Part shown: piece by piece, positions 12,001 to 18,000 of the stretch
Position numbering within the stretch: the first letter of the stretch is position 1
Layout: each line of letters opens with the position of its first letter
Made by a program: the position numbers
Assembly (NCBI RefSeq): GCF_056712565.1
Contig: NZ_CM160072.1
Reading direction: 5' to 3' (one strand)
Length of the DNA: 64,000 nt

Positions 12001-15000
12001 GTTATGCTGATACCCGTGTCGAAACGGAAACAGGTCCGCAATATACCTTCAACGAAACGCTTGCCTTGCGAGTGAACTATTATCTCGAGCGTGGTTTCAA
12101 TATGGATGATAGCCGCAATAACGGTGAGTTTTCCACGCAAGAAATTCGCGCCTATTTGCCGCTGACGCTCGGCAACCACTCGGTGACGCCGTATACGCGC
12201 ATTGGGCTGGATCGCTGGAGTAACTGGGACTGGCAGGATGATATTGAACGTGAAGGCCATGATTTTAACCGTGTGGGTTTATTTTACGGTTATGATTTCC
12301 AGAATGGTCTTTCCGTTTCGCTGGAATACGCGTTTGAGTGGCAGGATCACGACGAAGGCGACAGCGATAAATTCCATTATGCGGGTGTTGGGGTGAATTA
12401 CTCGTTCTGATAATGTGCTAAATTGCCGGATGCGGGGCGAGCGCCAAATCCGGCATACATTTATTTCAACGACATATGCGTAGCAACGGTAATATTTTGT
12501 GGTGACGGTTTTCCGGCAATTAACTGGAATAATAACTCGCAGCTTCGTTGACCTAACTCCTGCGTCGGAACATCGATGCCGCCTGGTGCAGGCGTTAATA
12601 TAAACGACAGCGTTTCATTACTATAACCCACCACCGCTAACTGCTGCGGAATAGCAATGTTTTTCTCTGCCGCCGCACGATAAATACTCATTAATTTCAG
12701 GCTGTCAGTAGCAAACACTGCCTCAGGCAACGGTGACTGGCTTAATAATTCCCGTGCTGCTTTTAATGCTGTCTCATGGGTATAACCGCCGTCAACAATC
12801 CATTCATCACGCACTGCAATATTATGCGTAGCCAGGCTTTGCTTATAACCATTTACCCGATCCACTGAAACATGAACATCAAGCGGCGCATGCAGGCAGG
12901 CAATATTCTTATGCCCGCTTTCAATTAACGCATCGGTTAGCGCAATACTGTCGCCATAATTATCGGTATCGACGGAATAAACATGGCTGTATTGACCTTC
13001 AACTTTGCCAATTACCACTACCGGAATATCATATTTATCGAGTTGGGCAAAAAATGACTCATCCGCTGGCGAACTTAGCATAATAATGCCTTTAATCATT
13101 TTCTGCTTAATTTTGCTTTCGCATTTATGTAAGTCTTCTGCCAGGTTGTGCGACGTCTGCAATATCACGTCGAAACCTTCTTCTTCAGCTTTGGCGGTGA
13201 TGGCATGTAAAACTTCCGAGAAAAACGGATTACCCGCCGTAGTTTTGGTCGAACGGGTAGAAATCACCATAATGGCATCAAAACCCGAAGAGGTCAGCGC
13301 GCGTGCCAGCTTGTTTGGTTGATACTGTAATTCTTCAATGGCCCGTAACACTTTTTCGCGCGCTTCCGGGGAGATATTGGTTTGCTTATTCAGCACGCGT
13401 GATACGGTGGATTTTGATACGCCTGCAACCCTGGCAATATCATAAATAGTAGGGGACATAGGTCAGGAACTCCGTCCGAACGTGAATGCTGCACATCTTA
13501 TGGAGTTCGCCCGTCGATGACAACACGGGTAGTTGATAATCAATGGCCTGGCCCCCACATTCATATTCTTACGAACGATTTTTTTTCTGGTCTTCAGAGC
13601 AGCACAGGACAGCAATGAAGCGACTTAAAAATGAACTCAATGCGCTGGTGAATCGGGGTGTCGACAGACATCTGCGCCTCGCTGTAACCGGACTTAGCCG
13701 CAGCGGCAAAACAGCGTTTATCACCGCGATGGTTAATCAGTTGCTCAATATTCATGCCGGAGCACGTTTGCCGCTTTTAAGTGCGGTGCGTGAAGAGCGC
13801 CTGCTGGGCGTAAAACGCATTCCCCAGCGTGACTTTGGCATTCCGCGCTTCACCTATGATGAAGGGTTGGCGCAGTTATATGGCGATCCTCCCGCCTGGC
13901 CGACGCCTACGCGCGGCGTCAGTGAAATTCGCCTGGCGTTACGTTTTAAATCGAACGATTCGCTGCTGCGCCACTTTAAGGACACCTCCACGCTGTATCT
14001 TGAGATTGTGGATTATCCCGGCGAATGGCTGCTCGACCTGCCGATGCTGGCACAGGACTATTTTAGCTGGTCGCGCCAGATGACGGGCTTACTCAATGGT
14101 CAGCGCGGCGAATGGTCGGCGAAATGGCGAATGATGTGCGAAGGGCTGGACCCGCTAGCGCCTGCCGACGAAAACCGGCTGGCAGACATTGCCGCCGCGT
14201 GGACCGATTATCTCCATCACTGCAAACAGCAGGGGCTGCACTTTATTCAGCCAGGACGCTTTGTTTTGCCTGGCGATATGGCAGGAGCGCCCGCGCTGCA
14301 ATTCTTCCCATGGCCAGATGTCGATGCCTGGGGCGAGTCTAAACTGGCGCAGGCCGATAAACACACCAACGCCGGAATGTTGCGCGAGCGTTTTAATTAT
14401 TACTGCGAGAAAGTGGTGAAGGGGTTCTATAAGAATCACTTCCTGCGTTTTGACCGCCAGATTGTGCTGGTGGACTGCCTGCAACCGCTCAACAGTGGAC
14501 CACAGGCATTTAATGATATGCGTCTGGCGCTGACGCAGCTGATGCAAAGTTTCCACTACGGGCAGCGTACCCTGTTCCGGCGTTTGTTTTCGCCGGTTAT
14601 TGATAAGCTATTGTTTGCTGCCACTAAAGCGGACCATGTGACCATCGATCAGCACGCCAATATGGTTTCATTGCTGCAACAACTGATTCAGGATGCCTGG
14701 CAAAATGCGGCGTTCGAAGGGATCAGTATGGACTGCCTGGGGCTGGCGTCTGTTCAGGCGACCACCAGCGGAATTATTGATGTTAACGGTGAGAAAATCC
14801 CGGCGCTGCGCGGTAATCGACTCAGCGATGGCGCACCGCTCACTGTTTATCCTGGCGAAGTTCCCGCACGTTTGCCTGGTCAGGCGTTCTGGGATAAGCA
14901 AGGCTTCCAGTTTGAGGCGTTTCGTCCGCAGGTGATGGATGTCGACAAACCGCTACCGCATATTCGTCTTGATGCTGCGCTGGAATTTTTAATAGGAGAT

Positions 15001-18000
15001 AAATTGCGATGACCGAACCGTTAAAACCACGTATTGATTTCGACGGTCCACTGGAGGTCGATCAGAATCCAAAATTCAGGGCGCAGCAGACCTTTGACGA
15101 AAATCAGGCGCAAAATTTTGCCCCAGCCACGCTCGATGAAGCGCAGGAAGAAGAGGGGCAAGTTGAAGCGGTAATGGATGCAGCGTTACGTCCGAAACGC
15201 AGCCTGTGGCGCAAAATGGTGATGGGCGGGCTGGCTCTGTTTGGCGCAAGCGTTGTCGGGCAGGGCGTGCAGTGGACAATGAACGCCTGGCAAACCCAGG
15301 ACTGGGTGGCGCTGGGTGGATGTGCCGCTGGGGCATTGATTATCGGCGCTGGCGTAGGTTCTGTGGTAACAGAGTGGCGGCGCTTATGGCGCTTGCGACA
15401 GCGCGCCCATGAACGCGACGAAGCGCGCGATTTGTTGCACAGTCACGGCACGGGTAAAGGCCGTGCATTCTGCGAAAAACTGGCGCAGCAGGCGGGCATC
15501 GATCAGTCACATCCGGCGCTGCAGCGCTGGTATGCCTCAATCCATGAAACGCAGAACGATCGTGAAGTGGTCAGCCTGTATGCTCACCTGGTCCAGCCAG
15601 TTTTAGATGCCCAGGCGCGGCGCGAAATCAGCCGTTCGGCAGCGGAATCAACGTTAATGATTGCCGTTAGCCCACTGGCGCTGGTGGATATGGCGTTTAT
15701 CGCCTGGCGCAATCTGCGTTTGATTAATCGCATCGCCACGCTGTATGGCATTGAACTGGGATATTACAGCCGTTTGCGCCTGTTTAAGCTGGTATTGCTG
15801 AATATTGCTTTTGCCGGAGCCAGCGAACTGGTGCGCGAAGTGGGGATGGACTGGATGTCGCAAGATCTCGCTGCGCGTTTGTCTACCCGGGCAGCTCAGG
15901 GGATTGGTGCTGGACTTCTGACGGCACGACTGGGGATTAAAGCTATGGAGCTTTGCCGCCCGCTGCCGTGGATTGACGATGACAAACCTCGCCTCGGGGA
16001 TTTCCGTCGTCTGCTTATCGGTCAGGTGAAAGAGACGCTGCAAAAAGGCAAAACGCCCAGCGAAAAATAATGCAATATCGGGTGCTGACCGGATATCTTT
16101 ACGCCGAAGTGCCCGTTTTTCCGTCTTTGTGTCAATGATTGTTGACAGAAACCTTCCTGCTATCCAAATAGTGTCATATCATCATATTAATTGTTCTTTT
16201 TTCAGGTGAAGGTTCCCATGCGTCTGGAAGTCTTTTGTGAAGACCGACTCGGTCTGACCCGCGAATTACTCGATCTACTCGTGCTAAGAGGCATTGATTT
16301 ACGCGGTATTGAGATTGACCCCATTGGGCGAATCTACCTCAATTTTGCTGAACTGGAGTTTGAGAGTTTCAGCAGTCTGATGGCCGAAATACGCCGTATT
16401 GCAGGTGTTACCGATGTGCGTACTGTCCCGTGGATGCCTTCCGAACGTGAGCATCTGGCGTTGAGCGCGTTACTGGAGGCGTTGCCTGAACCTGTGCTCT
16501 CTGTCGATATGAAAAGCAAAGTGGATATGGCGAACCCGGCGAGCTGTCAGCTTTTTGGGCAAAAATTGGATCGCCTGCGCAACCATACCGCCGCGCAATT
16601 GATTAACGGCTTTAATTTTTTACGCTGGCTGGAAAGCGAACCGCAAGATTCGCATAACGAGCATGTCGTTATTAATGGGCAGAATTTCCTGATGGAGATT
16701 ACGCCTGTTTATCTTCAGGATGAAAATGATCAACACGTCCTGACCGGTGCGGTGGTGATGCTGCGATCAACGATTCGTATGGGCCGTCAGTTGCAAAATG
16801 TCGCCGCCCAGGATGTCAGCGCCTTCAGTCAAATTGTCGCTGTCAGCCCGAAAATGAAGCATGTTGTCGAACAGGCGCAGAAACTGGCGATGCTAAGCGC
16901 GCCACTGCTGATTACGGGTGATACCGGCACCGGAAAAGATCTCTTTGCGTATGCCTGTCATCAGGCAAGCCCCAGAGCGAGCAAACCTTACCTGGCACTG
17001 AACTGTGCGTCTATACCGGAAGATGCGGTCGAGAGTGAACTGTTTGGTCATGCTCCGGAAGGGAAGAAAGGGTTCTTTGAGCAGGCGAACGGTGGTTCGG
17101 TGCTGTTGGATGAAATAGGTGAGATGTCACCACGGATGCAGGCGAAATTACTGCGTTTCCTTAATGATGGCACCTTCCGTCGGGTTGGCGAAGACCATGA
17201 GGTGCATGTCGATGTGCGGGTGATTTGTGCTACGCAGAAGAATCTGGTCGAACTGGTGCAAAAAGGCGTGTTCCGTGAAGATCTCTATTATCGTCTGAAC
17301 GTGTTGACGCTCAATCTGCCGCCGCTACGTGACTGTCCGCAGGACATCATGCCGTTAACCGAGCTGTTCGTCGCCCGCTTTGCCGACGAGCAGGGCGTGC
17401 CGCGTCCGAAACTGGCCGCTGATCTGAATACTGTACTTACGCGTTATGCGTGGCCGGGAAATGTGCGGCAGTTAAAGAACGCTATCTATCGCGCACTGAC
17501 ACAACTGGACGGTTATGAGCTGCGTCCACAGGATATTTTGTTGCCGGATTATGACGCCGCAACGGTAGCCGTGGGCGAAGATGCGATGGAAGGTTCGCTG
17601 GACGAAATCACCAGCCGTTTTGAACGCTCGGTATTAACCCAGCTTTATCGCAATTATCCCAGCACGCGCAAACTGGCAAAACGTCTCGGCGTTTCACATA
17701 CCGCGATTGCCAATAAGTTGCGGGAATATGGTCTGAGTCAGAAGAAGAACGAAGAGTAAGCGTGAATATGCCTGATGGTGCAACACCATCAGGCATATTA
17801 ACTTATGCTTTCAGTACAGCCAGAGCTGCTTCGTAATCCGGCTCGGTGGTGATTTCATCCACCAGCTGGCTGAAAATCACATTGTCATTTTCATCAATAA
17901 CCACAACGGCACGCGCTGCCAGACCTTTCAGTGGGCCATCAGCAATTGCCACACCGTAGGCTTGCAGGAATTCAGCGTTACGGAAAGTGGAGAGGGTGAT

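Follow-up and report, generated by a model that had tools for sequence, protein, structure and literature searches.

We describe here the ycjX-ycjF gene pair (ycjXF) of Escherichia coli as it lies in a stretch of 64,000 nucleotides (nt) from contig NZ_CM160072.1 of NCBI RefSeq assembly GCF_056712565.1, which we refer to as the window and the whole of which is E. coli chromosome. The two genes form a chromosomal operon. ycjX (13615-15012, + strand) encodes 465 residues and, from its open reading frame (ORF) and the RefSeq annotation of an identical strain, is the gene for a predicted soluble TRAFAC/Ras-like GTP-binding protein of the DUF463 family; ycjF (15009-16070, + strand) encodes a 353-residue inner-membrane protein (DUF697, TIGR01620), and its start overlaps the ycjX stop. 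With the sequence ...TTG CGA TGA at the junction and the ycjF ATG at 15009, the 4-nt overlap given in the initial annotation is ATGA (15009-15012). Upstream and divergent lies ycjW (12461-13459, - strand), a LacI-type regulator by annotation and Pfam match, and tyrR (16218-17759, + strand) begins 147 nt downstream of ycjF; the annotation of the identical strain gives ycjW, tyrR and tpx as the neighbours. The gene identities and the setting between a regulator and tyrR had thus been read correctly, in that the full-length DUF463 match, the DUF697 and TIGR01620 matches, and the RefSeq names ycjX and ycjF all agree, but 13460 is not the start of ycjX; it is the first base of the ycjW-ycjX spacer, and the start codon is the ATG at 13615.

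That start is preceded by a Shine-Dalgarno sequence, AGGA, read from the sequence at 13606-13609 (+ strand), and an upstream alignment of orthologues shows a nearly invariant GGA..GC.ATGAA block at this position. A longer ORF of 489 residues from an ATG at 13543 was considered as ycjX and rejected: it overlaps the promoter, begins upstream of the transcription start at 13568, and carries an extension with no counterpart in orthologues, the alignment of which begins, as does the RefSeq gene, at MKRL. The 2611-base ycjXF region is 100% identical to that of strains such as ATCC 11775 and ZJ3920. Of 5426 complete E. coli genomes, 5413 contain it at a coverage of 80% or more, and almost all of them have one copy, on the chromosome. 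The pair is therefore part of the core genome with fixed synteny, and the earlier description of it is accurate and ordinary: the operon is already catalogued as part of the E. coli core, its promoter is known, and its GTP-binding subunit has been characterised structurally. The question of what ycjXF does is a real one, though of long standing.

The ycjX promoter

Two elements of the sigma32 type precede ycjX on the + strand. The -35 element gTTGATA (13532-13538, at about -36 to -30 from the mapped start) departs at two positions from CTTGAAA, and the -10 element CCCCACAT (13553-13560), which follows after a 14-nt spacer, departs at one position from CCCCATNT. The whole of 13532-13560 thus reads gTTGAtA-14 nt-CCCCAcAT, with three mismatches among the 14 specified positions of CTTGAAA-N12-15-CCCCATNT, the sigma32 consensus used here. 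The promoter string TTGATA...CCCCCACAT, which had been called plausible but non-consensus, is located at 13533-13560; the promoter itself is upheld by a mapped start and by conservation, and its departure from consensus was overstated, since the sequence is near-consensus. By sequence alone the motif is only moderately significant, and is suggestive rather than decisive, because 2.5% of dinucleotide-shuffled versions of the 155-nt intergenic region contain an equally good match, and the two strands of the window (128 kb together) contain 13.

Three independent lines make the sigma32 promoter solid, these being the mapped start, conservation across genera, and binding and heat-response data. 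A 5' RNA sequencing table includes a ycjX promoter of this exact sequence with its start at K-12 position 1384070 (+), at -47 from ycjX (PMC4488433). Alignment of MG1655 to the window places this position at 13568 (a C, + strand), 47 nt upstream of the ycjX ATG and 8 nt downstream of the -10 element, and there is thus a promoter match at the correct distance from the mapped start, as for members of the sigma32 regulon. The mismatch between start and promoter that would have counted against the initial annotation is not seen. In about 13 enterobacterial genera, DNA that is otherwise unalignable holds a TTGATAA...CCCCATnT block whose distance to the downstream ATG is 43-54 nt, or 77 nt in a single outlier, with the CCCCATnT portion at about 45-55 nt, and the promoters of Pluralibacter (CTTGCAA-13-CCCCATGT) and Enterobacter BIGb0383 (CTTGACA-14-CCCCATGT) each have a single mismatch. 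Re-examination of sigma32 chromatin immunoprecipitation (ChIP-chip) data gives a signal of 2.9 at ycjX, equal to that at dnaK (PMC2996942), a chemostat study places ycjX and ycjF among the early heat-responsive genes (PMC7572479), and PMC3041696 credits the sigma32 promoter of ycjX to Nonaka 2006 and RegulonDB. Heat-shock regulation, which the initial annotation had put forward, is borne out by these reports. In its 14-nt spacer, the 8 nt between the -10 element and the start, and its ChIP signal, the ycjX promoter resembles classical sigma32 promoters of the dnaK, groES and clpB type, although it has three mismatches to the consensus used here and the motif is conserved only within the Enterobacteriaceae.

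We have considered that the motif is incidental, and that ycjXF is expressed mainly from another promoter (sigma70 or sigmaS) or under divergent ycjW control. The chance expectation and the 13 equally good sites in the window leave room for this, as does the GATAAT at 13535-13540, a potential sigma70-type -10 that shares bases with the -35 element, and we also note that the start was mapped in work on how initiation depends on growth phase, not in work on heat shock (PMC4488433). However, the start at 13568 is 28 nt from GATAAT as against 8 nt from CCCCACAT, and GATAAT is rejected as a -10 element on this ground; a sigma70 scan gives no + strand site between 13444 and the ycjX ATG. Nor would an incidental motif be expected to keep its distance to the ATG in many genera while its flanks cannot be aligned, to have a ChIP signal equal to that at dnaK, or to precede two genes that are both induced early by heat, and we regard this explanation as very improbable.

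At the -1 position of the ycjX start, the window has a T (13567) where K-12 MG1655 has a C. Primer-dependent initiation with a 5'-CC primer has been reported for the K-12 ycjX promoter in stationary phase, and the CC at the start is therefore absent in the strain of the window. This T-for-C substitution is the sole unusual feature that the window adds to ycjXF. At the other end of the operon, the spacer between ycjF and tyrR (16071-16217, + strand) has no terminator-like site by a terminator scan and may thus allow read-through into tyrR, which agrees with the ycjX-ycjF-tyrR transcription unit that PMC3041696 cites from RegulonDB.

Pairing and translational coupling of ycjX and ycjF

A scan of one genome per species with a YcjX alignment yielded at least 595 relatives, and the best 80 loci, which span Enterobacterales, Vibrionales, Pasteurellales, Aeromonadales, Alteromonadales, and Salinicola, were used for comparison; pairing was counted over 89 loci, 88 of which are evaluable, with the remaining one at a contig end. 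ycjF begins no more than 15 nt after ycjX in 82 of the 88, distant relatives included, and 69 of these 82 have a 4-nt ATGA or GTGA overlap by script count, with two more by gene calls. Six distant YcjF representatives with 30-38% identity all have a DUF463 gene directly upstream with overlapping stop and start (6/6). The two genes are translationally coupled by the ATGA overlap.

The ycjF Shine-Dalgarno sequence AGGAG (14994-14998, + strand) is situated inside the codons of G461-D462 in the invariant C-terminal GDKL motif of YcjX, and GGAGAT (14994-14999) is common to the motif and to the ribosome-binding site, which is a dual coding constraint. GGA encodes Gly461 in 61 of 76 orthologues (80%), whereas five further glycines that are invariant in these genes are encoded by GGA in 63 of 378 cases (17%); the counts are not phylogenetically independent. 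This preference argues for selection on the nucleotide sequence itself, by which translation of ycjF is kept coupled to that of ycjX.

The six loci in which the genes are not adjacent (L076, L077, L078, L081, L083 and L089) are all in the Pasteurellaceae. In Cricetibacter (L076, 11404-13533), an OmpA-like lipoprotein gene and a transposase-like gene, the product of which we take to be an IS1595-type transposase, lie between ycjX and ycjF; in Haemophilus seminalis (L078) ppc follows ycjX, and H. sputorum (L081) carries ycjF on the opposite strand at a distance of 10 kb. The name of the TIGR01620 model, hyp_HI0043, presumably refers to H. influenzae.

The YcjX and YcjF proteins

YcjX matches DUF463 (PF04317) with an E value of 2.6e-181 and 603.9 bits (cut-off 25), its residues 20-464 covering profile positions 1-443 of 443. 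The Walker A motif noted earlier is present as GLSRSGKT (G1, residues 26-33), and is accompanied by DYPG (G3, 133-136, within DYPGE at 133-137) and TKAD (G4, 337-340), the last being the guanine-specificity motif; in seven divergent orthologues with identities down to 35%, G31, K32, DYPGEW, T337, K338 and D340 are invariant. Residues 6-464 align with Shewanella oneidensis YcjX (PDB 6NZ4, 6NZ5 and 6NZ6) with an E value of 1.5e-123 and 46-50% identity, and the YcjX model matches these structures by Foldseek with an E value of 3e-43, target-normalised template modelling (TM) scores of 0.87-0.90, and 46% identity. The PDB entries are named YcjX-GDP, YcjX-GDPCP (a GTP analogue), and 'YcjX stress protein'. 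By its motifs and alignment, YcjX is thus assigned to a family crystallised with guanine nucleotides and carries G1, G3 and G4. The two orthologues are alike in DUF463 membership, fold and motifs, although the Shewanella crystals are without the YcjF partner and E. coli YcjX itself is known here by sequence and model. The initial annotation described the biochemical function of the pair as undescribed; for YcjX this is superseded by the GDP and GDPCP structures of the Shewanella protein, and it holds for YcjF and for the physiological role. Since DYPGE is motif-aligned with DTAGQE of Ras, we infer that E137 occupies the position of the catalytic Gln61 of Ras, and it is a candidate catalytic residue of YcjX. 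Unlike bacterial dynamin-like proteins and Mx, YcjX has neither stalk nor paddle and the membrane part is a separate protein, and the pair is not a member of that family.

YcjF matches DUF697 (PF05128; E value 8.8e-55, 185 bits, cut-off 27.7) and TIGR01620 (E value 4.4e-129, 430.8 bits, cut-off 160), and its AlphaFold model is all-helical with a mean predicted local distance difference test score (pLDDT) of 85.4 and a predicted TM score (pTM) of 0.73. Both the hydropathy profile, which peaks at about 1.9 at residues 107-114 and 221-225 and includes a hydrophobic helix at 70-90, and the model indicate an integral membrane protein. Hydropathy, charge counts and the model place a pair of transmembrane helices at about residues 70-90 and 100-120 (15216-15368, + strand; long helices at 66-95 and 99-144 in the model), joined by a short loop (91-99) that is free of Lys and Arg, whereas the flanks at 60-69 and 121-135 are rich in both. 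From this distribution and the positive-inside rule, residues 1-69 and 121-212 would be cytoplasmic. A further hydrophobic stretch, 213-233 (15645-15707, + strand), surrounds the invariant S221-P222 in the DUF697 core, and hydropathy, alignment and model together show it as a helix-turn-helix; in the model, S221-P222 break it at the turn that connects helix 196-220 with helix 224-245, and it is probably a re-entrant hairpin. The earlier designation of YcjF as polytopic is consistent with the two clear transmembrane helices, but does not extend to this third stretch, which is broken in the model.

YcjF has no relatives in the PDB by sequence or profile search, the best match, an MBP-huntingtin fusion with an E value of 0.012, being due to low complexity and rejected. 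A word-indexed homologue search returned Enterobacteriaceae exclusively among its best 120 matches (82-100% identity), and an exhaustive search of representatives gave 1466 clusters at an E value of 1e-3 or below, the best 150 of which are all YcjF-like. DUF697 is described as occurring fused to GTPase domains in other lineages; no GTPase-DUF697 fusion is present among the best 150 of the 1466 matches, and the longer relatives P0191, P0242, P0270 and P0231 have low-complexity N-terminal extensions and not GTPase domains.

A possible contact between the two proteins was modelled as a YcjX-(GGGGS)6-YcjF fusion with 22 paired sequences of 34-79% identity. The AlphaFold model has a pTM of 0.76, which in our judgement is higher than would be expected for randomly placed bodies, and 115 of its 848 residues have pLDDT below 50. 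YcjF residues 26-35 reach a pLDDT of 84 in the fusion, as against 61-68 in YcjF modelled alone with a much deeper alignment, and short strands at 27-29 and 37-39 appear in the fusion model and not in that of YcjF alone. The N-terminal tail of YcjF is acidic and variable, but has anchors at F11, F23, F29 and F37 that are hydrophobic in 86-97% of 107 sequences and are each usually followed by Asp or Glu, with F23 being Leu in most relatives. The pattern is that of a docking peptide and suggests that the tail docks on YcjX, with residues 26-39 (15084-15125, + strand) as the docking segment predicted from the fusion model and anchor conservation.

A different view is that the proteins are merely co-expressed, with YcjX a soluble stress GTPase that acts on cytoplasmic targets, for example the translation machinery, and YcjF serving a separate membrane function. 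YcjX has no hydrophobic segment by hydropathy, ycjX and ycjF are unlinked in Haemophilus species, and the next structural matches of the YcjX model after the YcjX crystals are the translational GTPases eEFSec, EF-Tu, EF1-alpha and Hbs1, although these matches are weak (E values 0.02-0.3, target-normalised TM scores of about 0.25). However, the stop/start overlap is kept down to 30% identity, the choice of codon at Gly461 preserves the ycjF ribosome-binding site, both genes are retained even where unlinked (as in L081, with ycjF 10 kb off, and as the model name hyp_HI0043 suggests), and the fusion model has a pTM of 0.76 with a locally ordered YcjF tail. Because the coupling is conserved and both genes are retained where they are unlinked, this view is weakened, and we think it unlikely.

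The phage-shock context and possible roles of ycjXF

The adjacency of ycjXF to the phage-shock (psp) genes is the most informative context for the pair and was missing from the initial annotation, although the link itself is already known (PMC3041696, PMC3467454, PMC11237479, PMC9239133): 32 of 81 psp operons carry ycjX (PMC3041696), Yersinia enterocolitica has a pspABCD-ycjXF operon (PMC3467454), and infection with phiX174 induces ycjXF together with psp genes (PMC8125068). In most of the loci examined, the genes immediately upstream of ycjX are pspF-pspABC(D), and the order pspF-pspABC-DUF463-DUF697 also occurs in distant loci. The gap between psp and ycjX is 7-16 nt in Yersinia, Serratia, Rahnella, Pantoea and Tatumella (in Yersinia, ycjX starts 7 nt after the pspD match), which leaves no room for a separate promoter and agrees with the operon described in Y. 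enterocolitica. In E. albertii (L011) and a second Escherichia lineage (L012), pspD-pspE-ycjX are contiguous and the sugar island is absent, whereas in E. coli this island (ycjM...ompG-ycjW, about 13.5 kb) is situated between pspE and ycjX; the window begins inside the island, and the psp genes, about 14 kb upstream of ycjXF in the identical strain, are outside the window. The extended Psp arrangement, with ycjXF directly downstream of psp as one unit, is therefore absent here and present in most relatives. Because most loci, the distant loci, and E. albertii are psp-adjacent, we read the adjacency as ancestral and as having been broken in E. coli by the sugar island.

Relative to Y. enterocolitica, E. 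coli thus has the same two genes in the same order, but split from psp by the ycjM-ycjW/ompG island and with their own sigma32 promoter. The ycjW-ycjX spacer (13460-13614) has no sigma54-type motif, the best match having four mismatches in 11 specified positions, and as judged from this search, PspF/sigma54-dependent expression does not appear to operate here. On our reading of the alignments, the sigma32 promoter would be a trait of the Enterobacteriaceae, and at loci with a distance of 110-175 nt to pspD it would exist alongside read-through from psp.

Several loci depart from these arrangements. ycjW adjoins ycjX in Enterobacter cloacae, Superficieibacter and Siccibacter, one Citrobacter (L033) has the order ycjW-pspE-ycjX, and the pspE/ycjX junction looks like a recurrent point of insertion or rearrangement (window 1-13459; L001, 4180-20000). 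In two distant loci, L008 (1-9038) and L009 (1-9083), ycjXF is downstream of an exbB-exbD-tonB-TPR cluster and adjoins a MacB-type ABC exporter, and in L008 pspABC is 5.5 kb upstream of ycjX with the TonB genes between. In L007 (2328-9287), a metagenome-assembled genome with magnetosome genes (MamF and a magnetosome regulator), ycjXF follows a ZorA-like gene (870 residues) and an unannotated 477-residue gene with no psp genes nearby, which might hint at a link to ion-driven membrane machinery. Another metagenome-assembled genome (L005, 12934-17023) has two very large HSP70-family genes (919 and more than 610 residues, one with DUF3731) near a ycjXF-tyrR-like cluster.

We have also asked whether ycjXF could belong to the 'DO-GTPase' type of anti-phage or conflict module, with the GTPase switch controlling YcjF as an effector that would damage the membrane upon infection. 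The psp-linked protein is placed in the DO-GTPase family by PMC11237479, which cites Kaur 2020 and the YcjX structure; both ycjX and ycjF are induced by phiX174 infection (PMC8125068), and E137, the residue that follows the G3 glycine in DYPGE, is an invariant Glu, as is expected of the conserved Walker B glutamate that marks the family (Kaur 2020, PMC7159879). YcjX is likewise TRAFAC-type and would likewise function near the membrane. However, the DO-GTPase/GAP1 systems of Kaur, Burroughs, Iyer and Aravind 2020 have at their core a GAP1 partner, often paired GTPase paralogues, and variable effectors (PMC7159879), and ycjXF has a single GTPase, with no second paralogue, GAP1 or variable effectors in the window or the 89 related loci, where the neighbours are psp, tyrR or housekeeping genes. 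The PADLOC models gave no match to either protein, the pair is a stable core-genome element with fixed synteny (5413 of 5426 E. coli genomes), and heat-shock control points to housekeeping stress physiology. A conflict role is thus, in our estimation, a most improbable one.

We favour, with some confidence, the interpretation that ycjXF encodes a membrane-tethered GTP switch in the response to membrane or heat stress. Both termini of YcjF and its region 121-212 would be in the cytoplasm, and YcjF, by means of its acidic N-terminal tail together with its cytoplasmic helices, would hold YcjX at the cytoplasmic side of the inner membrane; the complex would then be a GTP-controlled switch that helps the inner membrane to cope with heat or with stress of the phage-shock type. 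In E. coli, separation of psp from ycjXF by the sugar island would leave the sigma32 promoter as the direct input to the pair. Several observations weigh against this interpretation. The association with psp is loose, in that DUF463 is found in genomes without Psp and the E. coli genes are on different promoters (PMC3041696, PMC9239133), and among non-polar deletions in Y. enterocolitica robust phenotypes were obtained for pspF, pspA, pspB and pspC only, and not for ycjXF (PMC3467454). The evidence for contact is indirect, coming from a linker fusion with 22 paired sequences in which the interface itself is not visible, and the predicted strands at YcjF 27-29 and 37-39 could pair with each other rather than with YcjX. 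The six Pasteurellaceae loci with separated genes and the growth-phase origin of the start-site data belong here as well.

A more specific version of the switch, which we consider doubtful, is that YcjX-YcjF is a GTP-driven effector arm of the phage-shock membrane-stress response. The DUF697 bundle, which has Gly-rich helices and a predicted re-entrant SP hairpin, would lie within the inner leaflet, where it would detect defects in the bilayer or seal them; the YcjF tail (F11, F23, F29 and F37) would capture YcjX, and the GTP cycle of YcjX, with E137 at the Ras Gln61 position, would set the on and off states. A sigma32 promoter would have been gained in the Enterobacteriaceae and the link to psp lost in E. 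coli by insertion of the island, and a single machine would then answer to heat in E. coli and to secretin or proton-motive-force stress in other bacteria.

The window changes nothing that is already catalogued, and its value is in the testable handles that it offers: the YcjF docking tail, the predicted N-in topology with a re-entrant hairpin, E137, the embedded ycjF ribosome-binding site, and the putatively ancestral psp adjacency. The adjacency in 82 of 88 loci, the embedded ribosome-binding site, psp as the usual upstream neighbour, and the fusion model are the additions made by the present analysis. ycjXF is one of the most strongly sigma32-bound loci with a physiological role still unassigned, and it travels with Psp membrane-stress genes across the gammaproteobacterial orders sampled; a function for it would fill a gap in the maps of both the heat-shock and the envelope-stress responses.

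Two other features of the window lie on either side of the pair. The ORF at the ycjQ position ends at 5242 (240 residues), whereas the annotated ycjQ span corresponds to 4520-5572, and in a strain that is identical over the ycjXF region, ycjQ is annotated by RefSeq as a pseudogene, with a stop codon inside it; with ycjQ interrupted, the sugar pathway may be impaired in this lineage. A perfect palindrome, TGTCAA-TGATTG-TTGACA (16130-16147), is located 71 nt upstream of the tyrR ATG; it resembles a TyrR box, TGTAAA-N6-TTTACA, and may be a tyrR autoregulatory site.

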